64,000 nt of DNA, taken from the NCBI GenBank assembly GCA_965248355.1, contig OZ252098.1, positions 3,392,001 through 3,456,000 on the forward strand. The letters are read 5' to 3'. This DNA is from Candidatus Latescibacterota bacterium. GTDB lineage: Bacteria; Latescibacterota; UBA2968; UBA8231. The notes below the pieces were generated by a model. It worked only from the letters and a program-made list of their open reading frames with translations, had not been told where the DNA came from and did not search any database. Positions 2,067 through 20,187 of the stretch are shown here, in pieces. The translations under genes were made by a program, and so were the position numbers. Position 1 is the stretch's first letter. The number at the start of each line of letters is the position of its first letter.

Positions 2067-2446
2067 CGTCCCGGCCGTCACCGGGTCGGTGGGGCGGCGG
2101 GTTCTCTCATGCGAGAGCGCGGCGCAATGGACACGGTCGGACGGTCACACCAGGCACTCACCAGGGGCTGGACTTCGATGTGTAGACGTGGTCAGGCATC
2201 TTGTAGCTCACTCCCTCCTCGTCATACACCGAGATTTTCAGAAGCTGAGTGAAATTCTCTGACCGGACCACTTGTCCGGCCTTCAGAAATCTTATGGCGC
2301 GTTGCTTCATTCGGTACAAGAACAGTGTTCCCACACCGAAGTGCTTTGGAAACTCGAACTGGTCAGCGAGCCGCCCGCCTATGAGAGCTCGCGAAAGGCG
2401 GTAGGACAAAGCGGTCAGTTTTTCCTTTTCAACCGGATCTGTCACA

Positions 2447-4084
2447 GTAACCGTTCAGTCCCCTACGGGTGGGTCCACATGTTGAGAAATTGCTGTTCTG
2501 ATTTGGCCTTTGTGGGTATCTTGGGACCGGTTTCTGGCACAGAGTCCTTTAGACCCGGGCAAGGCCGTGGAGAGCCCCCCTCAGATTTCGGTGTCCGACA
2601 GCGACTGGCAGCGCACGCCGCGGGCCGTGCAGGGGCTGGTGGTCCGCTTGGGGGAGCGGGTGGCGCACCTGGAGCAGATCGTGGAGCAACAAACCGCCCG
2701 CATCGCGGCCTTGGAGCAGGAACTGGCCCGCCGCAAGGACGAGGCCGCCGCGGCGCCCAAGCCTCGGCTTCTTCGGGCTCCAGCGACCGCGCCAGCCAGC
2801 GCCGATCCTCGGGACGTTCGCCGGGAGGACAGCCGGGGCACGAAGGCCATGGCCGGTCGCTGATGCCGGCCGAGCGCGTGGATCAGTGGACCCCGGTCAA
2901 GCCCAGCGCCTGCCACCGATGCGGCCAGCGGCTGACGGGCGAGGACCCCCATCCGCGGCGTCACCAGCAGGTCGTGATCCCGCCGGTGCGAGCCCAGGTC
3001 ATCGAGTATCAGTTGCACACGCTGCGTTGTCCGGCCTGCGACCGGCTGACCGAAGCCGACTGGCCCGTGGGGGTGTCCCGGCGCACCTTCGGGCCCAGCG
3101 TGCAGGCCTGGGTCGGCCTGTTGGCCGGCGCCTACCGCTTGAGTCATCGCAACATCGTAGCCCTGTTGTCCGACGCCTTTGGCGTCGAGCTGTCGGTGGG
3201 CACGGTCAGCCCGTTGCAGCAAGAGGTGTCGGCGGCGCTGGCCGCGCCGGTGCAAGAAGCCGGCGCCTACGTTCGTCAACAAGCCCGAGTCAATGTGGAC
3301 GAGACGGGCTGGCGGCAACGCCGCGCCCGGGCCTGGTTGTGGACCGCGGTGACGGCGGGCGTCTCGGTGTTCGCCATTCGCAACAGCCGCGGCCGGGAGG
3401 TGGTCGAGGAGTTGCTCGGCGCCGACAGCCCGGCGGTGGTCGGCTCGGACCGGTACTCGGCCTACGGGCATTTGCCGCCGGCGCGCCGGCAAGTGTGCTG
3501 GGCTCACCTGCGGCGCACCTTCGAGGACTTTGTGGCCCGCGGGGGACAGGCCGCCGACATCGGCCAGCAGTTGCTGGCGTGCACCGATCAGATGTTTACC
3601 TGGTGGCATCGGGTCCGCGACGGCACCCTGCAACGCGCCAGCTTCCAGGTCTATGTCCACGCTCTGCGAGTGCGCCTTCGTCTGGCCTTGTGGTCTGGGC
3701 AGCAGTTCGCCGACGCCCGGACGGCGGCGACCTGTGGCAATCTGCTCGACCTCGAGCCGGCGCTGTGGACCTTCGCCCGCCGGCCGGGCGTGGAGCCGAC
3801 GAACAACGAGGCCGAACGAGCCCTTCGCCATGGCGTGCTGTGGCGCCACACCAGCTTCGGCAACCACAGTGCCGACGGCAGCCGCTTCGCCGAGCGCCTG
3901 CTCACGGTGCGCGACACCCTGCGCCAGCAACAGCGCAGCGTCCTCGACTATCTCATGACGGCCTGTCACGCCGCCCTCCAGCAGCAGCCGGCGCCGTCCC
4001 TGCTGCCCCAAACCAGCTCCGTCCTTCGGTAGTCCTCTCCGCACCACTCCTCCGCCTCCATCAGCTTGGAGACTGAACGGTTAC
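2447..4084 (+). mobile_element. IS66-family insertion sequence, single-ORF (ISBst12-like) type, 1638 bp
   Basis: Perfect 14-bp terminal IRs GTAACCGTTCAGTC / GACTGAACGGTTAC, and 8-bp direct repeat CTGTCACA at 2439-2446 and 4085-4092. Confidence 0.95.
2510..4032 (+). CDS. IS66 transposase, apparent frameshift near 2735-2740
   Basis: N-terminal coiled coil (DWQRTPRAVQ...ELARRK) is in the 2510 frame. GGQPGHEG, CHRC/CPAC zinc finger and VDETG/SDRY/NNEAER motifs are in the 2272 frame. Start uncertain. Confidence 0.85.
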
Positions 4085-5085
4085 CTGTCACATCCCCAAC
4101 CGCCGGAATGGCTTGGATCAGCATATTCGCCACGGCTATCGAATCGGCATCGGGCGGCGGCTCGCACATATAGCTGATCTTGTAGACTTCCTCCGCGTCC
4201 TCGGCATCGGCATAGAGGATGGTCTCGGGTATCCCCATGAGATAGCCGGTGTAGCGCCAGACATCGAGAATGCTCCTGTTTTCCTCGCTATTGAAACTCG
4301 CCCCCACCCCTGCCGAGTACTCCAGGAGGCGCTTGGAGAAGACGGAGATGGCAAACCCCAAATGCGCCGCGCTTACCGGCGTGCCCCAGGCTTCGTGATT
4401 CCAATCGTCGGATTGGGCCAGCATGCTCCTTATACGAGCATGAACAAAGCGAATGCGCACGGACAGCTTCCAGCCATCACCATTTCTTTGCAGGCCACCG
4501 GGGAAGAAAATATCCATCATGTGGCGGTTGTTCTGCTGAAGGCGCCTCCTGGTCGACGCCACCCGCCCGGTAATATTGAAAGACTTGGCGATAAGCGTGG
4601 AAAAGCCTTCCACCAGCACTCCGGTAACGAATGCGACGAGTATGAGGTTGACATTGGCATGGAATGCGCGGCGTCCTGCCTGAAAGGCCTCGTAGTCCAG
4701 CCAGGGAGGATCTTCAAGATTCTCGAAGAAATCGCGCAGAGGCTGCGGCGCTCGGCGCAGCACCTCGTCCTGCTGCTCTATGCCGGCCCTGATGAACCGG
4801 TGCAACTCACCGGGAGGCAAGGAGGAGAGCTCCTCCATAACCGGATCCAGCGCGGGATCGCCGATTGCGGTGTGCCTGACATAGTTGTCGGCCGCTGCCT
4901 GGTCGTAGAGGCGGGCCTTCTCATAGCCCTTGGTGTATGCCGAAGGCGATGATGGCATTTCCATTTCCAGCATCCTTTGAGATGTCCATGGCCAATGGAC
5001 AGTGGGGGAGATCTCGAGGGACAACCTGTAATATAGCCTCTCTTAGTCCTGAAAACCCAACCATTCGGGGCAAACGAGGGCCAAA

Positions 5086-6828
5086 CTAGGGCGGTCCCTC
5101 GACCTGCACCGTGACGATGTCCACGTCGTGGTACTTCTGGTGGCCCACGGAGGTGGCGTAGTGGCGCAGCAGGCGGAAGGAGATCTCGCGCTCGTCCGGC
5201 AGCTCGGGCTGCTCGCTCAGGTAGGCGAGCCGGTCTTCCAGGTTCGCCACGTCCGAGGCGGCCAGGAACTCCAGCTCCGCCCCCTTCTCGGCCCGGTGCG
5301 CGGTGACGATCAGTCGCCGCCCCTTGCCGTCCGTCCTGTCCTCCTCGACTTGCTGCAACAACACCGCCAGGGTCTCCTCTCCCGCGGAGCGCAGCCGTCC
5401 CTCCGCCGCCTCATTCCAGCCGATCCTCGCGGAGAAGCCCCGGAGGAAGGCATCGATCTCCGGCAACGCCCCGGCGGCCAGCTCGACCTCCAGCCGGCGG
5501 CGTCGGGGAGCTGTCAGCTCCATGAAGGCGGTCAGGGCGATCGCCGCGAGGCAGCCGGCGGTCATGCCATTGCCGAGCAAGGTGCCCCAGGTGCCGCTGC
5601 CCAGGAGATCCGCGAAGATCACCTGGTTCTGGAAGCCGACGCCGATCCAGAAGGCCAGCCCCACCACCGCGGCCTTGCGATGATCGAGTCCATCCGCGAC
5701 GACGATCTTCATTCCCTGCACGAAGAGCAGGCCGATCAGCAGGGTCACATAAGCCGCGGCCACGGGGTTGGGAATGGCGATCAGGAGGGCCGTCACCTTC
5801 GGGGACAGGGCCAGGAAGACGAAGATGAGGCCGATATACACCCCCACGCGCCTCGCGGCGACACCGGTGAGCTCGGCGAGGGATATGCTGGTGGAGTAGG
5901 TCGTGTTGGGGGGCGTCGCCATGAGCCCGGACAGCAAGTTGCCGACCCCGTCGGCGTTCAGAGCCCCCTGGACCAGACGGAAATCGGTGGCCCGCGGCTG
6001 GCGCCTCGAGACCCGTTGAATGGCCACACCGTCGCCGATGGTCTCGATGGCGCCCACGAGGGTGACCACCGCGAAGGCCGGCAGGAGCACCCAGAACTCC
6101 GCCCCCGGCGTCAGGTCCAACCCGGGCCAGCCGCCGTCCGGAAGGCCGATCCAGGGGGCTTCGAGGAAGGGCCGGATGTCATACAGTCCGAAAGCAGCGG
6201 CCACGGCACACCCTACCGCCACGGCGATGAGCGGAGCCCACAGCCGCCAGGCCACGGGAGCGCGCAGGGTCAGCACCGCCAGCACCGCCAGCGTCGTCCC
6301 GGCCGCCATCGGGGCCGCGGCCGTCGGCGTGCCCTCGGGCACCTCCTTCAGCAGGCCGAAGACGATGGGCATGACCGTCACCGCGATCAGCATGATCACC
6401 GTGCCGGAGACCACCGGTGTGATGATCCGGCGCAGCAGGGAAAGCCTCGCCGCCAGGGCGAACTGAAAGAGCGAGGAGACGACGATCAGGCTCGCCATCA
6501 GGGCCGGTCCGCCCCTTGCCAGGGCGGTGATGCAGACCGCGATGAAAGCGCCCGAGGTGCCCATGATCAGCACGTGCCCGGCCCCGATCCGCCCGACCCG
6601 GACCGCCTGGAGCACCGTGCTCACGCCACTGATCAGGAGCGCCGCGAAGGCGACCCAGGTCAGGTAGCTCGCGGGCTGGCCGGCCGCGCGGCCGATGATG
6701 ACGGCGCCGAGCACCACCGGCGCCAGGACGACCACCGCGGCCTGGAAGCCCACCCCGGCCGCTACGGAGTGGGGAGGGCGGTCCTCCGTCTCGAAGCGGA
6801 TCGATTCATTCTCCCCTGGTGTTTCCAA
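5086..6828 (-). CDS. NCS2 (xanthine/uracil) permease fused to a C-terminal degenerate RsbW-like HATPase domain
   Basis: NCS2 motifs IMGTSGAF, ITPVVSGTVI, IETIGD, ADGVGNLL, PNTTYS, followed by a ~140-aa soluble tail resembling the RsbW at 15960-16409. Confidence 0.8.
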   Translation of the reverse strand: METPGENESIRFETEDRPPHSVAAGVGFQAAVVVLAPVVLGAVIIGRAAGQPASYLTWVAFAALLISGVSTVLQAVRVGRIGAGHVLIMGTSGAFIAVCITALARGGPALMASLIVVSSLFQFALAARLSLLRRIITPVVSGTVIMLIAVTVMPIVFGLLKEVPEGTPTAAAPMAAGTTLAVLAVLTLRAPVAWRLWAPLIAVAVGCAVAAAFGLYDIRPFLEAPWIGLPDGGWPGLDLTPGAEFWVLLPAFAVVTLVGAIETIGDGVAIQRVSRRQPRATDFRLVQGALNADGVGNLLSGLMATPPNTTYSTSISLAELTGVAARRVGVYIGLIFVFLALSPKVTALLIAIPNPVAAAYVTLLIGLLFVQGMKIVVADGLDHRKAAVVGLAFWIGVGFQNQVIFADLLGSGTWGTLLGNGMTAGCLAAIALTAFMELTAPRRRRLEVELAAGALPEIDAFLRGFSARIGWNEAAEGRLRSAGEETLAVLLQQVEEDRTDGKGRRLIVTAHRAEKGAELEFLAASDVANLEDRLAYLSEQPELPDEREISFRLLRHYATSVGHQKYHDVDIVTVQVEGPP

Positions 6829-6899
6829 AGGCCCTCACTCCCGATCTGAGGTCTGAGGACGGCCGGGCGGCCTCATGGGCGCCATACCAGCAGCAGCTG

Positions 6900-7200
6900 G
6901 GCGACATCAACAGGTGGGGGGCTCCGAGAATCGCACGACCCAGGTCCCAGGTGAACTGCGGCTGGGCGAGGATCGACCCCTTCACCTCCCGGCCGAGCTC
7001 GTCGGTGCTGCGGCCCAGGTACTCGGCATGGCCGGCGACGGAAAGGGATTGTCCGCCGACCTCGAAGGGGCTGTTCCCGGTCTCGGGGGCGCCGCCGGCG
7101 GTGAGATCCGTGTTCAGAAGAGAAACCAGGGCAGATCCCAGGACACCCTGAGTCCGGGCAGGTACTTCACGACTCCGGCGTCCCCACCCGCGTTGCCCCC
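6900..7200 (-). pseudogene. Remnant of a Tsx/DUF5020-like outer-membrane nucleoside channel
   Basis: Fragments in two frames: NAGGDAGVVKYLPGLRVSWDLPWF, then LNTDLTA-GGAPETGNS-PFEVGGQSLSVAGHAEYLG...ILAQPQFTWDLG. Beta-strand pattern recognised from memory; no start codon. Confidence 0.55.
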
Positions 7201-7214
7201 GGCGGCGGCCGGGA

Positions 7215-9434
7215 TCAGGTGGCGGGCGCCCCGGAGCTGAAGCCCTTCCGGGCCAGCACGATCCTGAACTCGGTGTATTCCCCCTCTTCGGTCTCCACCT
7301 GGAACTCCCCGCCGTGCTCGCGCACGATCTCGTGGGAGATGGAGAGCCCCAGACCGGTGCCCTGAGTGCCGGACTTGGTGGTGAAGAAGGGGTCGAAGAT
7401 CTTGTCGACGATGTGGTCCGGAATGCCCGTGCCGTTGTCGCGGATGGATACGCTGACGCTGGTCTCGCTGCCCTCGGTCCTGAGCCACACGGTGGGCTCG
7501 TAGGTGCCCTCGGTCTCCTTGCCGCGCGCGATCGTGGCATGACAGGCGTTCGTCACCACGTTGAGGAAGACCCGGCTCAGATCCCGGGAGACGGCTTCCA
7601 CTTCGCCGGCGGCGTCGTCGAACTCCTTGACCAGATTGATGTTGAAGGTCGAGTCCGTTCCCCTGAGACCGTGGTAGGCGAGCTTGGCGTACTCGTCGAG
7701 CAGCAGATTCACGTCCACCGATTCCACCTGTCCCGCCTCGTTGCGGGAGTGGGCCAGCATGCCCTCGACGATGCGGTTGGCGCGCTCGCCGTGCTCCTTG
7801 ACCTTGACCACGTTGCCGCTGAGGTCGCCGAGGATCTCCTCCACCAGCTCCTCGTCCATGCCGCCCTCACCGTCCCCCTCCCCTTTCAGCTCCTCCCGCA
7901 GCTCTTCGATCAGCTCCGAGGACAGGCCGGCGAAGTTGTTCACGAAGTTGAGGGGGTTCCTGATCTCGTGGGCGATGCCGGCGGTGAGAGCGCCCAGGGA
8001 GGCCAGCTTCTCCTGGCTGATGACCTGCTGCTGGGTGCGCTTGAGGTCTTCCAGGATGGTCTCGAGCTCGGCGTTCTTGGCCTGGACCTCAGCCGCCAGC
8101 TTCTCCACCAGGTTGAGGCGCTGCACCTCCACGGCGTGCTTCCGAAAGACCTCCAGGGCCTCGGCCATGTCGGTCACCTCGTCGTTGCCGTCGATCCGCA
8201 CCTCCACCTCGAGGTCTCCCTTCGACATCCGCCGGGTGGCGTCGAAGAGTCCGGCCATCCGGACCAATAGACGCTCGCCGAAGAACCTCCAGGCGAAGTA
8301 GGCGCCCACGAGGGTGACCAGGGTGACCCCCAGCAGGAACCAGAACCCGATGCGCACCAGGTTCCGGGAGCGATTGGCCGCGTTGTGGGTGGAGACCTCG
8401 GCGTCCTTCACCAGGCCTTCCACCATGGCCACCAGATCGGCGGTCGTCTGCTGGTTGCGCGCCAGCAGGTCCTCTGAGCGGCGGACTTCCATCAGCTCGC
8501 GGGTGCGGGTCTCGAAGGCGCCGTCCGGGGCGGCGTAGAAATCGTCCAGGGTCGCCACCCGCGGCTGGAGCCGGGCCCTGATCTCGGGCCTGATCCCGGC
8601 CAGGGCCCGCCGCACGTCGCTCATGGCGGTTTCCACCCGTTCCCGGTTCGCCCGCAACAGTTCCGGATCGTTCTCCGTCATCGCCTGCTGGATGAAGGTG
8701 GTGGTGAGGTTCTGCGAAGCCTGGAAGTCGAGGAGGCCGGTGTAGTGGGCGAGCTCGGTCCTCGACGTCCGCCGGCCCGCGGGGACCGGAACATCGTCGA
8801 GGCCGCGGAGCCCGGTGTGCATGAAGAAGTGCTGATCGTCGACCAGCTCCTCCAGCAGGAGCTGCAGCTCGAGGCCGAGGCTCTCCACCTGACCTTCCAG
8901 CTCCCTGAGGCGGGACCGGTACTCCATCCTGCGGGCTACCGACTCCTGGATCTGGTTGATGCTCTCCACCAGGCTGTCGGCCAGCGGCACGACCGCGCTC
9001 CCGACGCCCCCCTCCACACCTCCCTTGGATTCGGCCCGCATCACCTCCACGAGCCACCGGCGAAGCGTCTCCTCCTCCCGGACCACGTCCCGGCCCACCT
9101 CCTTCAGGTCCGCGGGATCGTCGGCGGCCAGGAGCCGCGGCGAGGCCCGCACCAGCTCGGAGCTGCTGCGGGCCACCTCGAAGGCGGCCACCAGGGCCGG
9201 CATGTGGCCTTCGGTGACCTCGCTCTGCCGGGAGCTCACGATGCTCATCAGCAACAGGGCCAGGACCACGGCGCCGATGGTCATGGTCACCCCGACGCCC
9301 AGCCCCACCGCGATCTGGCTGCCGATGCCGAAACGCCCTCCCGTGGCCTGGCGGATCCGCTCGCCGAGACGGCCGGGGAACCGTTCCAGGAACAACTCGA
9401 AGGCGGAGTGGATTCGCTGGTCCGTCGTCTTCAT
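7215..9434 (-). CDS. Membrane sensor histidine kinase (TorS-like periplasmic domain, HAMP, HisKA, HATPase)
   Basis: Two TM segments, HAMP (GNDEVTDMA), H-box AHEIRNPLN, N-box NVVTNA, DNGTG, FFTTK, GTGLGL. Start ATG 9434 overlaps the upstream stop. Confidence 0.9.
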   Translation of the reverse strand: MKTTDQRIHSAFELFLERFPGRLGERIRQATGGRFGIGSQIAVGLGVGVTMTIGAVVLALLLMSIVSSRQSEVTEGHMPALVAAFEVARSSSELVRASPRLLAADDPADLKEVGRDVVREEETLRRWLVEVMRAESKGGVEGGVGSAVVPLADSLVESINQIQESVARRMEYRSRLRELEGQVESLGLELQLLLEELVDDQHFFMHTGLRGLDDVPVPAGRRTSRTELAHYTGLLDFQASQNLTTTFIQQAMTENDPELLRANRERVETAMSDVRRALAGIRPEIRARLQPRVATLDDFYAAPDGAFETRTRELMEVRRSEDLLARNQQTTADLVAMVEGLVKDAEVSTHNAANRSRNLVRIGFWFLLGVTLVTLVGAYFAWRFFGERLLVRMAGLFDATRRMSKGDLEVEVRIDGNDEVTDMAEALEVFRKHAVEVQRLNLVEKLAAEVQAKNAELETILEDLKRTQQQVISQEKLASLGALTAGIAHEIRNPLNFVNNFAGLSSELIEELREELKGEGDGEGGMDEELVEEILGDLSGNVVKVKEHGERANRIVEGMLAHSRNEAGQVESVDVNLLLDEYAKLAYHGLRGTDSTFNINLVKEFDDAAGEVEAVSRDLSRVFLNVVTNACHATIARGKETEGTYEPTVWLRTEGSETSVSVSIRDNGTGIPDHIVDKIFDPFFTTKSGTQGTGLGLSISHEIVREHGGEFQVETEEGEYTEFRIVLARKGFSSGAPAT

Positions 9435-10621
9435 CGCGAGAGCCGTGTCACCGGGGCGAATCGGCCTTTGCGGATCATGGTCAGGAAGACCCGGTCGGAC
9501 CCCTGGTTGTCTCCAGGTCCGTACTCGACCAGGAACCCGCCCAGGTCGATGGGGCCCGCCTCCTCCAGGGTGCGGAGGAAGGCCTCGCGAGTGGGCGCGG
9601 CCGGTCCGCCGCCATCGCCGGAGGCAGCGGCGGCGCTCAGGGCATCGACCACGAGACGGCCGGCCAGGTAGCCCTCGAGGGAGACGAAGCCTGGTTGGGC
9701 TGTTTCGTCGACCGCCTCCAGGGCGGCGTGATAGCGAACCACGACCGGGATCCGGCTGTCGCGCGGGAAGGGCACCACCTGGGTCACCACCACTCCGTCG
9801 CCGTGGGGGCCCAGCTCCTCCAGGAGGGCGTTGCTGCCGACGAAGGATATGTTCACGAAGACGGCGACCATGCCGATCTTGCGGGCCCACTTGATGAAGT
9901 GGGCCGCCGGCCGGTAGGCGCCGATGATGATCACCGCCTCCGGGTCACTGTCCAGGAGGCCGAGAAGGGCCCGCTTCACGGCCACGGTGTTGCGCATGTA
10001 CGTGACCTCGCCCACCAGCTCCATGCCGCGCCGCTCGAGGGCCCGGCGAACCCCCGTCAGGCCGGCCATCCCGTAGCTGTCGTCCTGGTAGAGGATGGCG
10101 ATGCGCCGGATTCCCAGGTCACCGGTGAGCCGCTCCACCATCTCCTCCGTCTCCTGGAAGTACGAGGCGCGCACGTTCACCACGTAGCGCTGGTCGTCTC
10201 CCCGGAGCAGCTCGGCGCCGGTGAAGGGTCCGATGTAGGGAACCGACGCGCCGCTGGCGATCGGCTCGGCGGCGTTGGAGGTGGGCGTGCCCACGGCCCC
10301 GATGAGGCCGAAGACGCCATGGGCGATGAGCTCCCTGGTGTTGGTTACCGCGGCCTCGGGCTCGTAGCCGTCGTCCCGTACCAGGAGCCGGAGCCGGCGG
10401 CCGTGGATGCCGCCGGACCGGTTGGCCTCCTCGAAGGCGGCGCGGATCCCCAGGTTCATGTTGCGGCCCAGCTCGGCGGCCGGACCGCTCAGCGCCGCCG
10501 ACTGACCGAAGAGGATGGAGTCGGGATACACCCCGTCGCCGCCCCCCCGCATCCCCTGGCCGGCCGCGCCGGCGGGGACGAGCCCGAGCGCCGCGGCGGC
10601 GAGGAGGGCCAGGCGGGTCAT
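9431..10621 (-). CDS. Periplasmic substrate-binding protein (type 1, LivJ-like)
   Basis: Signal peptide, GQSAALSGP, DDGYEP, VGTPT, NVRASY, YQDDSYG. Confidence 0.9.
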   Translation of the reverse strand: MTRLALLAAAALGLVPAGAAGQGMRGGGDGVYPDSILFGQSAALSGPAAELGRNMNLGIRAAFEEANRSGGIHGRRLRLLVRDDGYEPEAAVTNTRELIAHGVFGLIGAVGTPTSNAAEPIASGASVPYIGPFTGAELLRGDDQRYVVNVRASYFQETEEMVERLTGDLGIRRIAILYQDDSYGMAGLTGVRRALERRGMELVGEVTYMRNTVAVKRALLGLLDSDPEAVIIIGAYRPAAHFIKWARKIGMVAVFVNISFVGSNALLEELGPHGDGVVVTQVVPFPRDSRIPVVVRYHAALEAVDETAQPGFVSLEGYLAGRLVVDALSAAAASGDGGGPAAPTREAFLRTLEEAGPIDLGGFLVEYGPGDNQGSDRVFLTMIRKGRFAPVTRLSR

Positions 10622-10622
10622 C

Positions 10623-11783
10623 TCAGGAGGCATCTCCCAGGTAGCGCAGGGTCATGCAGGTGATGTCGTCGGACTGGGGGGCCTCGCCGGCATGGGCATG
10701 CACGGCCTCCACCACGCGGCGGCTGAAGTCGGCGGCGCTCGATCCGGCGGCCTCGGCCAGGACCCCGGTCAGCCTCTCGTCGCCGAACTCGACGCCGTTC
10801 GTGTCCATCGCCTCGTTGACGCCGTCGGTGTAGTAGAACAGCACGTCTCCCGGCTCCAGATCGAGGGTCCCCTCGGGGAACTCGAAGTCGGGCAACACCC
10901 CGAGGACCAGCCCCGGCGCGCAGTCGATCTGCCGCACCTCGCCGGACGGCTTGACCACGAACGGCAGGTTGTGGCCGGCGTTGGCGAACTCGAGGTGCCC
11001 CGTCATCGGATCGAGGTTCGTGTAGAACACGGTGACGAACATCGCCTCCTCGTTCGACTCCGCGAGCAGCTCGTTGACCTCTTTGAGGCACTTCGCCGGG
11101 TTGCTCTCGCCGATGGCGGTCCCCTTCATCAGGGTCCGGCTCACCATCATGAAGAGGGCGGCCGGCACTCCCTTCCCGGAGACGTCCGCCACCACGAGCC
11201 CCATGCGCTCGTCGGCGAGCCGGAAGAAGTCGTAGAAGTCGCCGCCGATCTCGCGGGCCGGGGTCATGGAGGCGTGAAGCTCGTACCTGGGGTTCTGGGG
11301 AAAGTCGGTGGGAAGGATGGACTCCTGCATCTGCGCCGCCACCCCGAGCTCCTGGCGCAAAGCCACCAGTTCGTCCCGGGACCGCAGCGCCTCACGCATC
11401 ACCAGAAGATGCTCGAGGGTCTTGTCGATCGTCGCCTCGAGATCGTCGAAGTCGATGGGCTTCGTCACGAAGTCGAAGGCGCCCCGGTTCATGGCGGTGC
11501 GGATGTTCTTCATGTCCCCGTACGCGGTGACCATCACCGCCCGCAGGTCGTACTCCAGATTGCCGAGCTGCTGCAGAAGGGTGAGCCCGTCCATCTCGGG
11601 CATGTTGATGTCCGACAGCACCAGGTCGACGTCGTCGTGTTCCTCGAGCTGCCTCAGGGCCTCGACCCCGTTCTGGGCGAAGATGAGGATGAGCTGTCCG
11701 GACCGGGTCTTGCGCCGGAACTTCTGCCGGAGCAGCAGTTCCAGATCCGGCTCGTCGTCCACGACAAGGATCTTCGGTACCAT
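10623..11783 (-). CDS. Response regulator receiver-SpoIIE/PP2C phosphatase (RsbU/RsbY-like)
   Basis: REC motifs LVVDDE, LSDINMP, TKP; PP2C motifs GGDFYD, DVSGKG, YTDG, SDDIT; GGAG upstream of ATG 11783. Confidence 0.92.
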   Translation of the reverse strand: MVPKILVVDDEPDLELLLRQKFRRKTRSGQLILIFAQNGVEALRQLEEHDDVDLVLSDINMPEMDGLTLLQQLGNLEYDLRAVMVTAYGDMKNIRTAMNRGAFDFVTKPIDFDDLEATIDKTLEHLLVMREALRSRDELVALRQELGVAAQMQESILPTDFPQNPRYELHASMTPAREIGGDFYDFFRLADERMGLVVADVSGKGVPAALFMMVSRTLMKGTAIGESNPAKCLKEVNELLAESNEEAMFVTVFYTNLDPMTGHLEFANAGHNLPFVVKPSGEVRQIDCAPGLVLGVLPDFEFPEGTLDLEPGDVLFYYTDGVNEAMDTNGVEFGDERLTGVLAEAAGSSAADFSRRVVEAVHAHAGEAPQSDDITCMTLRYLGDAS

Positions 11784-11958
11784 CGTCGCTCCAGGGTTGG
11801 ACATCTCGGTCGGCGATCTAAGGTACGCAAGACGATGATTGTAGCGCACGGCCTTTCTGAGCCGCAAGTGTACCCTCCCACGGGGCCCGCCTGGTTCTCT
11901 TTCACATTTTCCTGGGTATGATTTCCAGGATCGGCGGACGTCCAACGAGGAGGCAACG

Positions 11959-12185
11959 GTGACCCGGCCAGATGGCGGATTGAATCCTTCCGGAGCCCCC
12001 CGTCGGTCCGCGCAGCCGATTGCGATCATGGGCATGGCCTGCCGGTTCCCGGCGGAGGATCTCCCGGCCTTCTGGCGTCTGCTCGAAGCCGGCGGGAACG
12101 CGGTCACCGAGGTCCATCCGGGCTCAGGTGTCGGGAGAGCGGGCGAGTTGTTCCCGGACCCCGAGGCGCAGAACAAGGCCTGCCT
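11959..12185 (+). pseudogene. 5' fragment of a type I polyketide synthase (KS N-terminus)
   Basis: RBS GAGGAGG plus GTG start; [30 protein letters not shown] is the KS start, and similarity ends after ~75 codons. Confidence 0.8.
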
Positions 12186-12287
12186 CCTCGCCGGAGGGGT
12201 CCACTCGAAGAGAACGCGCCGGCATGAGTCCCGGTGTCCTCGGCTTGCCACCAGGGGCCGGCTGGCGAACACCCGGAGGACGGTTCC

Positions 12288-12500
12288 CTAACGCGTCACT
12301 CGCACCGTAACGACATCCAGTCCAGGAACTCCATCTCCACGGACCCTCCCTCGGGCTGGTCACCTCCAGGAAGGCCGTAAGGGCAATCGCCGTCGCCGTG
12401 CCAGGGGCCGACCAGCACGTCCTCGAAGATGTTGTGGTGCTTCATGCCGAGGCCGATGGAGAACGCCACTCCCGCCACGATGGCCTTCTGCAGATCGAGG
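12288..12500 (-). pseudogene. Deletion-collapsed remnant of a second NCS2-RsbW-like fusion gene
   Basis: Four ordered blocks match the C-terminal part of 5086-6828: LDLQKAIVAGVAFSIGLG, AIALTAFLEVTSPR, GSVEMEFL, LDVVTVRV*. Confidence 0.8.
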
Positions 12501-12570
12501 CAAGCCATGAGGATGCCCGTTGGCGTAGATCGACCCTGGAAGCGTCAGCCCCTTTCGAGGCGGATTCGGC

Positions 12571-13827
12571 TCAGGGCGCGAAGCGGTAGACCACCGGCAG
12601 CTTCGCGGTGTCCGTGACACCCGTGTCGGTGTGGTGGTAGATGTTCACCCTCCCCGTGCCGCAGTCCCCGAACTCGTCGCAGGAGAGAGCCCCGATGAGG
12701 CCTTGGAAGCCCTCCGTCGCCCCCAGTTCCTCGCGCAGGACGGCGCGGTCCACGCTCAGGGTCCCGGCGTCTTCCTCCGCGGCGGACTCGACGGCGCTGA
12801 GCAGCACCGTCGTGGCGTCGTAGGCGTGGGCCCAGTAGGGGGACGTGGGGGAGCCGCCGTACGTGGATTCATAGGCGGCAAGGACCTCCTCTGCGCTCTT
12901 TCCCGTGGCCCCATTGACGTTGGAGCCGAGGTCCGTCTCGGGCCCCGCGAAGTAGATGCCCTCCGATTGCGGCGTCCCCAGGAACTCCGACACGAGCAGG
13001 GCCGCGCCCGTGATGAGCGTCACCCCTTCCAGGCCGTCGAAGGACCGCGCCTGCTCGGCGAAGGGCGTGCCTTCGCCCTCGAAGAGCGGGAAGAAGAGGC
13101 CATCGGGCCCGGATTCCGCGAATTCCACCAGGACGGAGGTCATGTCCGTGGCGCCCTTCTCGATCGTGGAGATGGCCGGGACCTCACCCCCGATCTCGCG
13201 GAAGGCCGCGGCAAACGCGCTCACCAGGGCCGTGGTGTACGGGTCGCCGTCGTCGACGGCCGCCATGCGCCGCAGGCCCAGCTCGTTGTAGGCGAAGTCG
13301 GCCACCGCCCGCCCCTGGTAGAGGTCGTTGTTGGAGACGCGGAAGTAGCCGGGGTGGTAGTCGCGACTGGCGGTGCCGGCCAGGTCGGAGGTGAGCAGCG
13401 GCGAGGTGTTGCTCGGCGAGACCATCACCCGCCCCGCCTCGCTGAGCACCGGCGACGCGGCCACGGCCGCCGCCGAGCAGGAGGTGCCGATGACGCCCAG
13501 CACCTGGGCTTCGGCGGCGATCTGCTCGGCGCCGGTGCGGCCGCCCTCCGGCGTGCACATGGCGTCCAGGGATTCGCCGAGGTCGACGGCGTGACCCTGG
13601 ATGCTGCCGTAATCCCGCACGGCCAGCTCGCAGCCGTGGCGCAACGCCCCGCCAAGGGACGCTGCGCCGGTGATGGAAAGGAGCGACCGGATCTGCACCG
13701 CCTGGCCGGCGCCGATCTCCACGGCGCCGAGGGGTCCCGCCTTGCTGCCTGCCGGTTCATCCTCGCCGCATCCCGTCACCAGGACTAGGAGGAAGGGAAG
13801 CTGGACGCTTCTGATGGCCCTGGACAT
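12571..13827 (-). CDS. Branched-chain amino acid-type ABC substrate-binding lipoprotein
   Basis: Lipobox VTGC, GTSCS, SPSNTSP, YFRVSNND, AHAYDA. Confidence 0.88.
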   Translation of the reverse strand: MSRAIRSVQLPFLLVLVTGCGEDEPAGSKAGPLGAVEIGAGQAVQIRSLLSITGAASLGGALRHGCELAVRDYGSIQGHAVDLGESLDAMCTPEGGRTGAEQIAAEAQVLGVIGTSCSAAAVAASPVLSEAGRVMVSPSNTSPLLTSDLAGTASRDYHPGYFRVSNNDLYQGRAVADFAYNELGLRRMAAVDDGDPYTTALVSAFAAAFREIGGEVPAISTIEKGATDMTSVLVEFAESGPDGLFFPLFEGEGTPFAEQARSFDGLEGVTLITGAALLVSEFLGTPQSEGIYFAGPETDLGSNVNGATGKSAEEVLAAYESTYGGSPTSPYWAHAYDATTVLLSAVESAAEEDAGTLSVDRAVLREELGATEGFQGLIGALSCDEFGDCGTGRVNIYHHTDTGVTDTAKLPVVYRFAP

Positions 13828-14105
13828 GATCGTTCACCTCCTCGGGCTGCGGGCGCCCTGTGGACGCCACAGCCCAGGGTCAAGGGGTGGTCCGTAGCCG
13901 CCTCGTCTGCCGACCGAAGGTCTCGATGACCTCCAGTGTCTCGCGCACGTCGTCCCAGGTCAGCGAGAAAGTCCCCCGGAGCAACGTGGACGACACAAAG
14001 GCGCGGAAGGAGCGGCTCAACTGAAGGCCGCGGTCCGAGAGGTTGGGGTGGTTCGTAGGCTTCGAAGTTCATGCTTGGGGCCGGGCGGTGAATCACATAT
14101 CGGCT

Positions 14106-15483
14106 TCAGTCCGGGTCGCGGTAGTCTCCCCCCTGGTCGGGGTCAACCATGAGGGCGAACTCGGGGTAGGCGTCGATTCCCAGCTCGCCCGCGTCCTGCC
14201 CGATCTCCTCGACGTCGCGCGAGACCCTGAGGCCCAGGGCCCGGCTCAGACCCAACCACACCAGGAGGGAGGCGAAAAAGACAAAGGCGCCCACGCTCAG
14301 CACTCCGATGAGCTGCACCAGGAAGTTGCCCCCCCCCGGCGATGCAGACCGCCAGCGTGCCCCAGACCCCGGCGAAGAGATGGGCGGGGACCGCCCCGAC
14401 CACGTCATCGATCCGCATGCGCTCCAGCAGTTTCAATCCGGCCGTGCACAGGGCCGCGCCCACGGCGCCGATGACGATCGCCCACCTGGCATCGAGGATG
14501 TCCGGTCCCGCCGTGATCGCCACCAGGCCGGCGATGGCGCCGTTGAGGGCGGCGAAGAGATCGGTGCGGCCCAGGATGGGCCGGGACACGAAGATCGCCG
14601 TGACCACGCCCGCGGCGGCGGCGAGGTTGGTGTTGACGAGGATGTTGCTCATGGCCACCGCGTCGGCCACGCCGGAGAGGGCCAGCTGGGAGCCGCCGTT
14701 GAAGCCGAACCAGCCCAGCCAGAGGATGAAGACGCCGAGAGTGACCGCGGGGATGTTGGAGGGAGGCGTGATCTTCACCGAGCCGTCCTTGCGGAACTTG
14801 CCCCACCGCGGGCCCACGACGATGGCGCCGGCCAGGGCCGCCCAGCCCCCGGTCGAGTGGACGATGGTGGAGCCCGCGAAGTCCTGGAAGCCCATCTCCG
14901 AAAGCCATCCCCCGCCCCAGGTCCAGGCCCCGACGATGGGGTAGATGATCCCCGTCAGGACCGCGGTGAAGGCGAAGAACGCCCAGAGCTTGACCCGCTC
15001 CGCCAGCACCCCCGAGACGATCGAGGCGGTAGTGGCCACGAAAACCATCTGGAAGAACCAAAAAGACATGGTGGAGTAGTTGTTGGCCACCACCCCGGCC
15101 AAGGCCCCCTCGTCTCCGTCCAGGAGGGCGATCTCTCCGTCGGACAGGCCGTAGAAAAGGTCGAGAGAGCCGATCAGGGCCCCCACGTCGACGTACATCA
15201 GGCTGTAGCCCAGGATGTAGTAGGTGAGCCCGGCGATGGCGTACAGGCCGATGTTCTTGAGGCAGATCATGGAGGCGTTCTTGGACCGCACCGAGCCGGA
15301 CTCCAGCATGGTGAACCCGGCGCACATCCACATCACCAGGGCGCCCCAGACCAGGAACGAGAATGTGTTGAGGACGAAGCCGGTCTGCTCCTCCGTGGCC
15401 GCGGCCGGTGACGGCGCCAGCAGAATCCCGACGGCGAAGAGGCCGGCGGCGGCCATGGCGGATCGGTGTTGGCGCAGGTTCAT
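14106..15483 (-). CDS. amtB: Ammonium transporter, frameshifted at G9 tract (14329-14337)
   Basis: AGFTMLESG, FQMVF, SGVLAER, DFAGSTIVH, GWFGFNGGS, IDDVVGAVPAH. Last TM helix and EEIGQD tail are in another frame ending at 14106. Confidence 0.92.
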
Positions 15484-15627
15484 CGGGTGTGCTCCTCAAG
15501 CAGGTTTCGTGTTCCCATTCCGGGGTTGAGATGCAGTACGCCCGATCGGCGGCCCCAGGACGGGGTGCTGCGCCGGCGGACATCCCGCGGCGGCGAGAAG
15601 GCCGGTCCGGTGCACGCCATGGGAGTC

Positions 15628-15963
15628 TTATCCGAAACTGTCGCGGGCCTCCTCGACCGTGTCGAAGACCTTCGCCAGGCGCGAGAAGCCGCTGATCTCC
15701 AGCACCTCCAGGATGTGGTCGGGCACCCGGCACAGGGCCAGCCCCCCGCCGGCGGCGCTCGTCTTCCTGATGGCGATCAGGAAGACCCGCAGCCCCGCAC
15801 TGCTGATGTAGTTGAGCTCGCCGCAATCGACCACGAGTCCGGTGGACCCCTTGTCGATAATGGCGCTCAGCTCTTCTTCGAATTCCTTGGCGTTCGCGGA
15901 ATCCACGCGGCCGCTGACTGCGGCGACGGCCGTGGTTCCGGTGTGACTGGTCTCAACGTTCAT
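15628..15963 (-). CDS. STAS-domain anti-sigma-factor antagonist (RsbV/SpoIIAA-like)
   Basis: GRVDSANA, YISSAGLRV phosphoacceptor motif, EISGF; start overlaps the RsbW stop. Confidence 0.92.
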   Translation of the reverse strand: MNVETSHTGTTAVAAVSGRVDSANAKEFEEELSAIIDKGSTGLVVDCGELNYISSAGLRVFLIAIRKTSAAGGGLALCRVPDHILEVLEISGFSRLAKVFDTVEEARDSFG

Positions 15964-16409
15964 GCATCGTCCTCCGGAGTCTCCAAGGGCTGCACGAGGT
16001 TCAGGCGATTGCACCCGTCCACCCGCTCATACGTGAGCTTGTGAACGAATGCCTTGGTGAGATGGATGCCGAGGCCACCGATGGGACGGCCCGAGGCAGG
16101 AAGGTCCACATCGGGGTCGGCGGCGTCCTCGAGCGGGTTGAATGGTTTTCCATTGTCCTGAATGACGGCCTCCACTTCGGTGTCGCTGAGGTGGAGGGTC
16201 ACGGTGATGATCGGATCCCGCGTGTCCTCCTCGAACCCGTAGGAAATCACGTTCGTCAGTATCTCGTCCAGCGCCAGCTGGAACCCGAATATCGTCCTCT
16301 CCGGAAGCCCGTTCTCGGCTCCGAAACGTTCGAACTGCTCCGCGATTCGCCTTGGCTCCTCGCTGTCGAGCCCGACGTCAAACTTCAGATTGACATCCAT
16401 TTTGGTCAT
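15960..16409 (-). CDS. Anti-sigma factor Ser kinase (RsbW-like, HATPase_c_2)
   Basis: LALDEILTNVISYG, DNGKPFNP, GGLGIHL. Confidence 0.92.
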   Translation of the reverse strand: MTKMDVNLKFDVGLDSEEPRRIAEQFERFGAENGLPERTIFGFQLALDEILTNVISYGFEEDTRDPIITVTLHLSDTEVEAVIQDNGKPFNPLEDAADPDVDLPASGRPIGGLGIHLTKAFVHKLTYERVDGCNRLNLVQPLETPEDDA

Positions 16410-16587: not shown

Positions 16588-17441
16588 GAACCTATCTCAA
16601 AATCACTACACATAACCTTGAGTTCTGATTGCTGATGATGTACCATTACTGTATGGTTACTCTGACCGACCAGCAATGGGAACGGATCCGTCATCACTTT
16701 CCTGAGGAGCATCGCCCCGGGAGCCATCCGGGTCGTAAACCGATTGCCACCCGTGACGTTCTTGAAGCTGTGCTTTGGATTCTCAATACCGGGGCTCAAT
16801 GGCATATGTTGCCGCAGTGCTATCCGAACTACAAAACCGTGCATCGCCGTTTTCAAAATTGGTGTCGTCAAGGGGTGTTACGCGAAGTTCTCGTGGACCT
16901 GGCCCAGACTCTTCACGAGCAAGGGGACTTGGACGAATCGGAAGCTTTCATTGATGGCATGTTCTCGGCGGCCAAGGGTGGAGGTGCCGATATCGGCCAC
17001 ACCAAGCGAGGCAAGGGCGTACGAGTCATGGGGATCGTGGACCGCCATGGGCTTCCCTTGTCGGTGAGCACGCATGCAGCGAACCATCATGAAGTGACGC
17101 TGGTTCAGTTGACGTTTGACTTCTACCTGATCGAAGACAAACCCAAGAACTTGATTGGAGACAAAGCCTACGACAGCGACCCGTTAGATGAGGAGCTGAA
17201 GAAAGAAGGGGTCGAGATGATCGCTCCCCATCGCCAGAACCGAACCAAGAAAAAGACTCAGGACGGACGCCGATTGCGTCGCTATGTGCGGCGTTGGATG
17301 GTGGAGAGATTCTTCGCTTGGCTTCAATGGCAGCGTCGAGTGATCACTCGCTGGGAATTGTATCCGGAGAATTTTCTTGGCTTCGTCCAACTTGCCTCCA
17401 TCCTGATTTTACTTAAGCAATTTCAATTTTGAGATAGGTTC
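16588..17441 (+). mobile_element. IS5-family insertion sequence, 854 bp
   Basis: Perfect 16-bp IRs GAACCTATCTCAAAAT / ATTTTGAGATAGGTTC, TT on both flanks, lower GC than surroundings. Confidence 0.92.
16653..17432 (+). CDS. IS5-family transposase
   Basis: LTDQQWERI, TGAQWHMLP, IDG, GDKAYDS, RWMVERFFAW. Confidence 0.93.
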   Translation: MVTLTDQQWERIRHHFPEEHRPGSHPGRKPIATRDVLEAVLWILNTGAQWHMLPQCYPNYKTVHRRFQNWCRQGVLREVLVDLAQTLHEQGDLDESEAFIDGMFSAAKGGGADIGHTKRGKGVRVMGIVDRHGLPLSVSTHAANHHEVTLVQLTFDFYLIEDKPKNLIGDKAYDSDPLDEELKKEGVEMIAPHRQNRTKKKTQDGRRLRRYVRRWMVERFFAWLQWQRRVITRWELYPENFLGFVQLASILILLKQFQF

Positions 17442-17474: not shown

Positions 17475-20139
17475 ATGTTTCCATTTGGCCTGGCGCCCCT
17501 GAGTCTTGTCCTCGTCGCTTCACTCCTCGTCGGGATCCCGGCCTGGTCCGAGGAGGCTGCGGAGGAGGACGAGGGCACCGGCAAGGACGGGGCCTACACC
17601 GACGATGTGTACATAATGGAGGAATCCATCGTGGTGGGGACCCGGCATGCGCCCCGCTCCGAGAAGGATTCGGCCGCGCCCGTCGACGTGCTCAACTCGG
17701 AAGAGTTGCTCACCCAGGCGGCCGTCGACATGGACGACATCCTGCGCAACCTGACCCCGTCGTACAACATCCAGCGCCACGGCATCGACGACGAGGCGAC
17801 CCTGGTGCGCCCCGCCACCCTCCGGGGTCTGCCGCCGGACAACCTGCTGGTGCTGGTCTACGGCAAGCGGCGCCACCGCTCCGGGGGTCATCGCCCTGCT
17901 GGGCAGCTCCCTCAATACCGGCTCGCAAGGTCCCGATCTGAGCGTGATCCCGGCCATCGCCATCGCCCAGATGGAGCTTCTCCGGGACGGCGCCGCCGCC
18001 CAGTACGGCTCGGACGCCATCGCCGGTGTCCTCAACCTGAGGTTGCGGGACGCCTCCGAAGGGGTGCGGCTGGAGACCCGGGCGGGGGAGTACTTCGAGG
18101 GGGACGGCCGCCTGACCCAGGTCGCCGCCAACGTCGGCCTGCCGCTCACCCGGGACGGGTTCCTCAATCTCAGCGTCGAGTACCGCCAGAGCGATCCGAC
18201 CATCCGCAGCGGCCAGCGGGCCAACGCCGAGGCGCTCAGGTCCAGGGGATATCCCGTCCAGGAGCCGGCCCAGATCTGGGGCAGCCCCGACATCGACGGC
18301 GTCTGGAACACCTTCCTCAACACCGGTGTGGATCTCGGCATCGGGGCGCAAGCCTACGGTTTCGGAGGCTGGGCGAAGCGGCGCGCCGAGGGGGGCTTCT
18401 TCTTCCGCGCCCCGGGCACCTCGTCGGCGCGCAGCAGCGTCTTCCGGATCGGCACCGAACGGGCCGTCGCCGATCTCGACCTCGACGACGATATCGATCC
18501 CGCGGAGCTGGAGGTGCCCTCCCTGGACGCCGGCTTCGAGGAGGTGGAGGCTTTCGTCTCCCAGTACGAGGGCAAGCTCTTCCTCTTCAACGAGCGCTTC
18601 CCCGGCGGCTTCACGCCCCGCTTCGGGGCCGAGATCCGCGACCTGAGCCTGGTGGCGGGCCTGCGCGGCGAGCGCCCCGGCGGCCTCAAGTGGGACGCCA
18701 GCCTCAGCGGCGCCCGCAGCAACATCGAGTTCTTCATCTTCAACACCATCAACGCCTCCCTGGGTCCGGACACGCCGACCTCCTTCCGCCCCCGCGACTA
18801 CATCCAGACCGAGGTGGCGGCCAACCTCGACTTCTCCTACGCGGTGGAGGTGGCCGCCCTGGCCTCGCCCCTGGGCCTCGCCTGGGGGGCGGAATGGCGC
18901 CAGGAGACCTTCGAGTCCGTGGCCGGGGACGAACCCTCCTACGTGGTGGGCCCCTTTGCCGCCCAAGGCTTCAGCAGCGGCTCCAACGGCTACCAGGGGC
19001 TGGATCCGAGAAACGCCGGCCAGTGGGACCGCCCCAACTACGCCCTCTACCTGGACCTGCAGGCCGACGTGGTGCCGCGGCTGCAGCTGGGCACGGCGGT
19101 GCGCTACGAGGACTTCTACTCAGACTTCGGCAATACCCTCAACGGCAAGCTCTCGGCCTTGTTCCGGGCCACCGACCGGGTCAACCTGCGCTCGACGGTG
19201 AGCACCGGATTCCGCGCCCCTTCCCCCGGGCAGGCGAATCTGCGCGCCGTCACCACCGGGTTCTCGGGCACCGGCGGTCTGACCGAGCAGGGGCAGGTGC
19301 CGCCCACCCATCCCATCGCCGCGGCCCTGGGCGGCGTGGAGCTGACCGAGGAAAAGTCCCTGGGATTCTCGGTGGGCACCGCCATGGAGCTCTCCGACGA
19401 CATCGATCTCACCCTCGACTACTTCGACATCGCCATCGAGGACCGCATCGCCCTGACCGGGAACATCAGCGTCACCGACCAGATCGCCGGGATCATCCGC
19501 GAGGAGGAAGCCCTGCAGGGCGTCAGCGTTCTCCAGGAGGTCAAGTTCTTCTCCAACGACTTCGATACCCGCACCCGGGGCCTCGACCTGGTGCTGTCGT
19601 GGACGCGCACCTGGAACCGCCGGTCCCAGTCCCACCTCGATCTGGCCTGGAACTGGACCCGGACCACCCTCGAGGATTTCTCCGAGAAGCGGACGGTCGG
19701 CGGGTTTCTCGGCAAGCCCCTGGACGAGCCGATCGACTTCACCCTCATGACCCCCCGGCGCGAGGTGGAGCTGGAGGAGATGAACCCCGAGCACCGCCTG
19801 GTGCTCACCGGCAGCCACCAGCTGGACCCCTGGAACGCCATGGTGCGGCCCAGTTACTTCAGCGCCTGGAAGGCCTGCCGCTTCCAGGACAACACCTGTG
19901 GAGATCTCGATCCCTTCGACGGCGGCGTCATCGTCGACGCCGAGGTCGGCTACCTCCTCGGCGAGCGCTACCGGATCGGGGTGGGAGCGCAGAACATCCT
20001 CGACTCGGTGCCCGAGGTCGTCCCCGGGACTCCAGACAATCCCTCGGAGACCGAGGGCCAGGGCAACCTGCGCCCGGAGAGCACCCCCTGGGACTACAAC
20101 GGCGCCTTCTGGTACACCCGCTTGTTCATCGATTTCTAA
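17475..20139 (+). CDS. TonB-dependent receptor, frameshifted at G5 (17883-17887)
   Basis: Signal peptide and plug start (VVGTR, LRGLPPD, GKRRHRS) in one frame. LRDGAAAQYGSDAIAGVLN and a barrel ending in C-terminal F in another frame. Paralog of the next gene. Confidence 0.88.
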
Positions 20140-20187
20140 CGCATTTTCTTCCCCGAACCAACATTCCCCGGACGGAGGACCACTCCG

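Follow-up and report, generated by a model that had tools for sequence, protein, structure and literature searches.

Partner-switching modules are widespread outside the Firmicutes, and many bacteria carry them with an output that is unknown. Some of these systems have outputs other than a sigma factor, for example SiaB/SiaC, and others, such as RsbK-RsbY of Bacillus cereus, are driven by a phosphatase that combines a response-regulator receiver (REC) domain with a PP2C domain. What the STAS domain does in bacterial SulP carriers is unsettled. According to the available portion of one study (PMC7693655), the RsbW1 protein of Mycobacterium smegmatis is devoid of kinase activity but binds RsfB in its unphosphorylated form, RsbW2 is the sole RsfB kinase, and RsbW3 acts through pairing with RsbW1. 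Here we analyzed a 64,000-nucleotide stretch of a Candidatus Latescibacterota bacterium genome (GCA_965248355.1, contig OZ252098.1, positions 3,392,001 to 3,456,000; hereafter the window), which contains a gene for an NCS2/NAT-type permease with a C-terminal RsbW-like pseudokinase domain. We hold with moderate confidence that the product is a non-canonical NAT/NCS2 (UraA-fold) transporter whose kinase-dead RsbW/SpoIIAB-type tail is the predicted receptor for the unphosphorylated STAS protein encoded in the same gene array.

The permease gene (5086..6828, minus strand) is an intact open reading frame (ORF) of 580 amino acids with a TTG start, a stop codon at 5086-5088, and a third-position GC content of 0.91, and its relatives align with it over the whole length at up to 83% identity. 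The membrane domain occupies residues 1-436 (5521..6828, minus strand) and has about 14 helices in the predicted model. Residues 26-399 matched the Pfam family Xan_ur_permease (PF00860; E 7.3e-46, 157 bits, cut-off 27), which places the protein in the NAT/NCS2 family, while the scores for the NCBIfam models pbuX (TIGR03173, 196.9 bits) and ncs2 (TIGR00801, 175.8 bits) were under their curated cut-offs of 414.15 and 291.8. In HMMER alignments, the membrane domain matched the structures of UapA (5i6c and relatives), UraA, and SVCT1 with E values of 1e-9 to 1e-14. Contigs of relatives from three RNA libraries (two studies) cover parts of the gene at 90–99% likeness, with DNA carry-over being possible. 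One RNA library with related contigs was labelled sponge metagenome.

The available text of PMC5972032 defines canonical NATs by a QH motif in transmembrane segment 1 (TM1), ExxGD in TM8, and QNNG in TM10, and states that divergent prokaryotic branches without these motifs exist and that their function is unknown. When aligned to the UapA structures, the permease has Gln-Ala instead of Gln-His in TM1 (residues 29-30; 6739..6744, minus strand), retains the canonical Glu-x-x-Gly-Asp of TM8 as ETIGD (residues 262-266; 6031..6045, minus strand), and has TSIS where UapA has QNNG in TM10 (residues 313-316; 5881..5892, minus strand). The TM10 stretch reads Thr-Ser-Ile-Ser-L-A-E-L-Thr-Gly, in which only the final Thr-Gly (321-322) of the canonical motif is retained. 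Residue frequencies were counted in 131 full-length relatives (560-600 aa) drawn from 271 proteins. Gln29 was present in 128 of the 131, and His at position 30 in none of them (A, G, S, I, F, and L are among the residues listed). In TM8, Glu262 was found in 99 relatives (Lys in 16), the Gly in 113, and Asp266 in 118. Position 313 was Thr in 77 and Ser in 32, while Ser314 and Ser316 occurred in 114 and 102, respectively. The initial annotation of this gene had read exactly these changes from the sequence, and both the UapA alignment and the relatives bear it out family-wide. Since two of the three canonical motifs (TM1 and TM10) are replaced, the permease belongs to a non-canonical NAT branch by the criterion of PMC5972032. 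The substrate site is altered by this loss, and an altered substrate, as had been suggested, is the simplest reading of motifs that are replaced throughout the family.

The cytoplasmic tail comprises residues 437-580 (5089..5520, minus strand) and is predicted to adopt a GHKL fold of the RsbW/SpoIIAB/UsfX type that lacks the ATP-binding residues. An AlphaFold2 model computed from an alignment of 40 tail sequences had a predicted local distance difference test (pLDDT) score of 87 and a predicted template modelling (pTM) score of 0.81, with the predicted element order strand-helix-helix-strand-strand-helix-helix-strand-strand. When this model was compared with the PDB using Foldseek, 22 matches had E values of 1e-3 or lower, down to 1e-6, and those listed were B. 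subtilis RsbW, M. tuberculosis UsfX, SpoIIAB, the RsbW domain of Rv1364c, and LvrC only. Using VIA-align, the tail superposed best on RsbW (6m37_C), with a Z score of 15.5 and a root-mean-square deviation (rmsd) of 2.2 Å over 114 residues. UsfX, Rv1364c, SpoIIAB, SiaB, and LvrC followed with Z scores of 11.1–15.0 (11.5 for SiaB), and the first 12 ranks were all taken by these proteins and RsbW, which are of the anti-sigma-kinase type or related to it. The highest-scoring catalytic and ATP-binding (CA) domain of a histidine kinase reached a Z score of only 7.8, and the tail therefore belongs to the anti-sigma-kinase subclass and not just to the GHKL fold in general. The HATPase_c_2-type fold that had been expected for the tail was thus recovered by both structural searches. 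A phmmer search of the tail against PDB sequences yielded no match, and GAL4, the top PDB match in a profile search (E 0.014), was judged to be due to chance. In a protein-atlas look-up, the nearest clusters were annotated as 'hypothetical protein', and one of them carried HATPase_c_2 on 15% of its members, which we regard as a lead.

The sequence strings quoted in the initial annotation were all found, both in the permease frame (EETLAVLL, FLAAS, REISFRL) and in the stand-alone RsbW encoded nearby (DEILTNVI, IQDNG, GGLGIHL). This local RsbW served as the reference for the motifs that we take to be the N-box Asn, the G1 Asp-x-Gly, and the G2 Gly-x-Gly. In the hhalign register, the N-box Asn (ALDEILTN) lies opposite Val489 of the tail and the G1 Asp (IQDNG) opposite Ser525, and GGLGIHL lies opposite REISFRL when aligned by eye. 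Across the 131 relatives, the N-box position was I, S, V, T, C, or A and the G1 position was S, A, T, I, V, or F, with Asn in 0/131 and Asp in 0/131, so that the absence of ATP-binding residues asserted earlier holds for every relative. Judged by its residues, the tail is kinase-dead: across the family, it has lost the Asn that binds Mg, the Asp that binds adenine, and the glycine loops. The tail has a conserved set of its own, including Glu484, Glu485, and His563 in all 131 relatives, Asn529, Ser550, and Arg552 in 130 each, and Asp532 in 129. The invariant Glu484-Glu485 pair (5374..5379, minus strand) is located on the helix that matches the N-box. Mean column conservation in the tail (0.57) matched that of the membrane domain (0.58), which argues that the tail is a functional domain under purifying selection equal to that on the membrane domain. 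This equal conservation, together with the retained TM8 Glu, would fit a transporter or a sensor alike.

The fusion defines a large unannotated family, in which two known elements are joined in an undescribed combination. A search with the tail among proteins of 319-1015 aa retrieved 3306 at E <= 1e-3, and PF00860 was found on all 120 matches listed. The tail also matched 557 clusters at 50% identity. In full-length family matches, the tail sits at about residues 430-590. When each species was represented by a single genome, relatives were encoded in 581 of 605 candidate stretches, and the best 80 of these 581 (hereafter the 80 closest loci) share 52–84% identity with the permease. They carry the phylum labels Latescibacterota, Gemmatimonadota, Verrucomicrobiota, Chloroflexota, Actinomycetota, Pseudomonadota, Acidobacteriota, Nitrospirota, and Spirochaetota. 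Within the Latescibacterota, 72 of 168 genomes carried the tail, as did 11 of 49 genera; a genome can have as many as five copies, and the source genome has a single one. Two to five tailed permeases were present in G082, G089, G090, G097, G144, G145, and other genomes, and usually just one copy in a multi-copy genome was near a partner-switch module. In a FastTree phylogeny of 81 sequences, the phylum labels mostly formed single clades and required 10 label changes compared to a minimum of eight; Latescibacterota and Gemmatimonadota were mixed together, which may be a naming issue. Because the tree largely tracks the phylum labels, we do not claim recent cross-phylum transfer. The carrier genus names Poriferisocius and Poriferisodalis, along with isolate tags, suggest sponge symbionts. 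In full-text literature searches, which covered main texts, no paper turned up that describes an NCS2/NAT carrier fused to an anti-sigma-kinase domain, and the accessible part of a review of STAS-only proteins (PMC8256260) makes no mention of one.

To model the docking of the tail with the STAS protein of the window, we combined the alignment of 40 tail sequences with an alignment of 25 sequences of the local STAS and included three controls. The complex scored 0.71 (0.67, 0.72, and 0.71 in individual runs), compared to 0.00 for the top control. Of 157 solved complexes, 116 attained the mark set for this score, as did 2 of 215 mismatched pairs. The partner had a pLDDT of at least 89, and the runs shared at least 92% of their contacts. 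The predicted interface involves helices 1, 2, and 4 of the tail with Glu484/Glu485, Ser550, Arg552, Leu553, and His556, and residues 22-24, 53-63, and 88-97 of the STAS protein, including Ser55 and Ser56, which are invariant in the 25 sequences. In the model, STAS residues 55-57 contact E48/E49, S114, and L117 in tail numbering, and the Ser55/Ser56 loop thus meets the invariant Glu pair. The modelled geometry is the canonical one of RsbV/RsbW, in which the phospho-serine loop faces the N-box helix. The complex model shows that the tail looks like a STAS receptor, which is a likeness and not binding.

The permease is part of a co-directional array on the minus strand (5086-16409) that holds the genome's only tail gene, short STAS frame, short HATPase_c_2 frame, and SpoIIE phosphatase, one of each in a 5.5 Mb single contig. 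From upstream to downstream, the genes on this strand are RsbW, STAS, an ammonium transporter, a binding protein, REC-PP2C, a second binding protein, a histidine kinase, a Tsx-like remnant, the permease, and an MpaB-like gene. The RsbW-type HATPase_c_2 protein (15960..16409) retains the N-box Asn, Asp-x-Gly, and GGLG. It is followed by the single-domain STAS protein of 112 aa with a conserved Ser-Ser-x-Gly loop (15631..15966). A phosphatase with a REC domain and a SpoIIE-type PP2C domain (RsbU/RsbY-like) is encoded at 10623..11804, with an uncertain start because the ORF extends to 12272. A phosphatase, a STAS protein with conserved Ser, and an RsbW-type kinase, the gene set of a partner switch, are therefore encoded together. 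The HAMP-HisKA-HATPase_c sensor histidine kinase (7215..9434) has a probable start at 9434 that overlaps the stop of the upstream gene for a Peripla_BP_6 periplasmic binding protein (9431..10633), and a second Peripla_BP_6 protein is encoded at 12571..13827. None of the genome's 20 Sigma70_r2 matches fell in the window, and the nearest were ~214 and ~260 kb away. With no such match within ~210 kb, the one partner switch of this genome has no sigma-factor gene beside it.

To compare gene neighborhoods, we used the 80 closest loci and a second sample of 60 tail-gene loci from 23 Latescibacterota genomes, which were chosen from the listed matches and came mostly from single-contig assemblies; 3–4 of the 60 repeat loci of the first set. 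REC-PP2C genes were found at strong scores in six of the 80 closest loci (L005, L008, L010, L014, L015, and L027). In the phylum sample, a STAS gene lay within ~9 kb of the tail gene at 11/60 loci, RsbW at 8/60, REC-PP2C at 10/60, and any of them at 15/60. The linkage was seen in at least five arrangements, including the co-directional array of the window. The permease lies between two complete partner-switch modules in L005/L152 and L150, a STAS-PP2C-RsbW set is located ~4.5 kb from the permease in L130, L135, and L137, a lone STAS gene is directly upstream on the same strand in L125, L140, and L147, and yet other arrangements occur in L161 and L164. Chance adjacency of a STAS gene is expected at below ~1-2% per locus, since genomes of 5-6 Mb contain a handful of short STAS frames each. 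Because genomes that are related do not count as independent cases, we take the linkage as moderate support only. The linkage is real in this phylum-level group and is not general to the family members. The mere presence of a short STAS frame was rejected as support, since it was found in 10/10 and 5/5 carrier genomes and STAS also occurred in 10/14 control genomes. Pfam searches of the upstream neighbor of 73 loci returned mixed families (six loci were left out because the target gene was missed by ORF tiling).

Based on these results, we propose a mechanism in which the histidine kinase, probably reading the periplasmic binding proteins, would control the REC-PP2C phosphatase. The phosphatase would remove the phosphate from phosphorylated STAS, and the stand-alone RsbW would phosphorylate STAS again. 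By analogy, RsbW and REC-PP2C would set the phosphorylation of STAS, and the permease tail would read it. In its free form, STAS would dock on the tail by placing its phospho-serine loop against Glu484-Glu485 and the helix that bears Ser550, Arg552, and His556, and phosphorylation would repel it. We infer this phosphorylation-dependent release because two acidic residues adjoin the phosphorylatable serine. Docking would alter the activity or stability of the permease, and the output of the switch would be the uptake of a probably nitrogen-rich, nucleobase- or nucleoside-like solute rather than a sigma factor. The nature of the solute is hinted at by an upstream gene. In 13 of the 80 relatives, the permease gene is directly preceded on its own strand by an intact upstream Tsx-like gene of ~257 aa, and one member of this group matched the nucleoside channel Tsx at 27.3 bits (cut-off 27.2), which may point to a nucleoside- or nucleobase-like substrate.

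Several observations weigh against a STAS-receiving tail. The initial annotation had aligned the tail to the local RsbW by eye; hhalign gave the same register and the fold comparison confirms the relationship, but the sequence similarity itself was insignificant, with BLASTP E values of 3-15 and an hhalign probability of only 5.9%. Apart from one unrelated match at 0.16, no Pfam family was hit by the tail at E <= 10. The suggestion, also made at that time, that the STAS protein docks in trans is supported only indirectly, by the complex score, by a module in the same array, and by the recurrent linkage, but the complex may have passed by recall, because RsbV/RsbW, SpoIIAA/SpoIIAB, and UsfX/RsfB complexes have already been solved, and the linkage concerns a minority of loci. 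In mean conservation, interface positions exceeded the remaining tail positions only slightly (0.65 vs 0.56, one-sided p 0.07). The predicted interface includes 5 of the 21 tail positions conserved at 90% or more, and it leaves the conserved N529, D532, H563, Y566, and D570 unaccounted for. In the window, ~9 kb with other genes separates the STAS gene and the permease. In profile searches, STAS and RsbW genes occurred within 10 kb in only four of the 80 closest loci, and no partner-switch gene was near at 74 of these 80 loci and at 45 of the 60 in the phylum sample. An all-against-all clustering of 7330 ORFs from the 80 loci found no neighbor cluster common to more than 16 of them. Kinship among the genomes and the hand-picking of the 60 loci further limit what the linkage counts can say.

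The scarcity of nearby partner-switch genes and the lack of a family-wide conserved neighbor would both be expected if the tail had no partner and served as a dimerisation or stabilisation module of a homodimeric UraA-fold transporter, through an RsbW-type dimer interface. RsbW/SpoIIAB-type proteins are homodimers in the part of PMC7693655 that describes them, and the STAS domain of bacterial SulP is described as required for stability and function in the available text of PMC8256260. We regard this explanation as unlikely, although it is the one that survives best among the alternatives, since it leaves two features unexplained: the invariant Glu-Glu pair with the Ser/Arg/His helix, which is the predicted STAS face and not the RsbW dimer face, and the recurrent linkage of STAS genes in several arrangements.

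The conserved residues that the interface leaves over raise the further idea that a small ligand that is not ATP (for instance a metal, a nucleobase, or a second messenger of the nucleotide type) would occupy a putative remodelled pocket, and that the tail is an allosteric feedback sensor of the cytoplasmic pool. Invariant or near-invariant polar residues are indeed present on the elements that line the GHKL pocket (E484, E485, E520, N529, D532, S550, R552, H556, and H563), several of them outside the predicted STAS interface. However, the Mg-binding Asn, the adenine-binding Asp, and all pocket-shaping glycine loops are gone, and the gene context points to no ligand, which makes a sensor of this type improbable.

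We consider it quite improbable that the tail is a membrane-tethered, kinase-negative anti-sigma factor of the UsfX/RsbW1 type, which would keep a sigma factor at the membrane, release it upon STAS binding or substrate transport, and make the protein a true 'transceptor'. The top structural matches include anti-sigma/sigma complexes (8jzt and 1l0o), the kinase-negative RsbW1 acts as an anti-SigF in the accessible part of PMC7693655, and the genome has 20 sigma-70-type matches, but no sigma-factor gene is located within ~210 kb of the module, the most widely shared neighbor families are found at no more than 16 of the 80 loci, and no sigma factor was seen among the neighbors of 73 loci, where the upstream side was inspected.

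Of 140 locus records, 15 had a SulP-STAS gene no more than 10 kb away from the tail gene, representing 12 distinct loci after three duplicates were removed, and 18 had a GPP34-like gene near the permease, some of them duplicates. GPP34 (GOLPH3-like, PF05719) and SulP-STAS genes are next to the permease in L005 (14166-16706), L009, L011, L012, L017, L141, L146, and others, and in L005 and L010 the GPP34 gene is the first in an operon with STAS, REC-PP2C, and RsbW. A tail that binds the STAS domain carried by SulP transporters instead of, or besides, free STAS, and so couples two transporter types, is the least probable explanation, despite these 12 loci, often with a GPP34-like gene in between, and a 544-aa STAS-bearing frame 2.3 kb from the tail gene in G062, because the adjacency is limited to one clade of related genomes and the sole long STAS-bearing frame of the source genome is ~1 Mb away from the array.

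The remaining genes in this part of the window include several disrupted ones. The ammonium transporter gene (14136..15489, minus strand) has a frame change near 14323-14336 when compared to the intact genes of L005 and L010; its residues 1-398 read in one frame and residues 394-456 in a different one, which is either a real frameshift or an assembly error. The Tsx-like outer-membrane channel gene is a remnant (6876..7173, minus strand) that keeps residues ~119-256 of 256 across three reading frames. RNA-library contigs of relatives have extra letters at 6904/6905 and across 6991-7228 in this region. An MpaB-like oxygenase gene (2161-4964, minus strand) is split by an IS66-family element, with residues 1-309 encoded at 4964-4062 and residues 294-394 at 2454-2161, and the IS66 transposase ORF lies between the halves (2272-4032, plus strand). 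At the other end, an IS4/IS5-family transposase (DUF4096 and DDE_Tnp_1; 16629-17432, plus strand) is directly upstream of the RsbW gene, and the signalling-transporter array is therefore bracketed by insertion sequences. Beyond the IS4/IS5 element are two adjacent genes for TonB-dependent receptors (17944-22758, plus strand).

If the STAS-receptor reading is true, a transporter with a dead-kinase tail would be a direct output of a partner switch, and uptake would be gated by phosphorylation and not via gene expression. A large unannotated domain family, which has thousands of proteins and whose 80 closest loci alone bear at least nine phylum labels, would thereby gain a function, and the symmetry with SulP-STAS would be complete. 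The sponge-symbiont-like names of many carriers would make the uptake of host-derived nitrogen compounds ecologically interesting. A wider scheme, which we offer tentatively and think unlikely as a whole, is that UraA-fold carriers took both halves of the SpoIIAA/SpoIIAB pair, with STAS in SulP and a dead RsbW in this NAT branch. In bacteria like this one, there would be no sigma output; the sole STAS would shuttle between the kinase and the permease decoy, a two-component signal would gate uptake post-translationally, and the SulP and permease tails may dock to each other where SulP-STAS and GPP34-like genes adjoin.

Compared to RsbW, SpoIIAB, and UsfX, which have a HATPase_c_2 domain and the STAS antagonists RsbV, SpoIIAA, and RsfB, the tail shares the fold and topology over its whole 140 residues (Z 13-15.5, rmsd 2.0-3.1 Å), and its predicted STAS docking geometry would be the same. 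Unlike these free proteins, it is fused to the C-terminus of a 14-helix permease, is below Pfam detection, lacks the Asn, Asp-x-Gly, and GxG loops, and has no sigma factor in view. The combination of a dead RsbW-type domain and a separate RsbW with intact motifs resembles mycobacterial RsbW1 (M. smegmatis, PMC7693655 in the part available; UsfX structures 8ih8 and 8jzt), but RsbW1 and UsfX are soluble anti-sigma-F factors, whereas the tail is a domain of a transporter and its STAS binding is modelled only. With a histidine kinase, REC-PP2C, STAS and RsbW, and no adjacent sigma-factor gene, the array is similar to the modules of the SiaB/SiaC and RsbK-RsbY type, and it differs from them in its proposed output, which would be a transporter with its own decoy kinase domain.

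Among carriers, the permease shares the Xan_ur_permease domain and the TM8 Glu-x-x-Gly-Asp with UapA, XanQ, and UraA, while its replaced TM1 and TM10 motifs, scores below the NCBIfam cut-offs, and globular tail set it apart from these canonical members. Like the SulP/SLC26 proteins as outlined in the available text of PMC8256260, it consists of a 7+7 inverted-repeat carrier followed by a cytoplasmic domain from a partner-switching pair. In contrast to SulP/SLC26, the carrier is of the NAT/NCS2 type, and the half that it captured has the fold of the kinase or anti-sigma factor and not that of the STAS antagonist.

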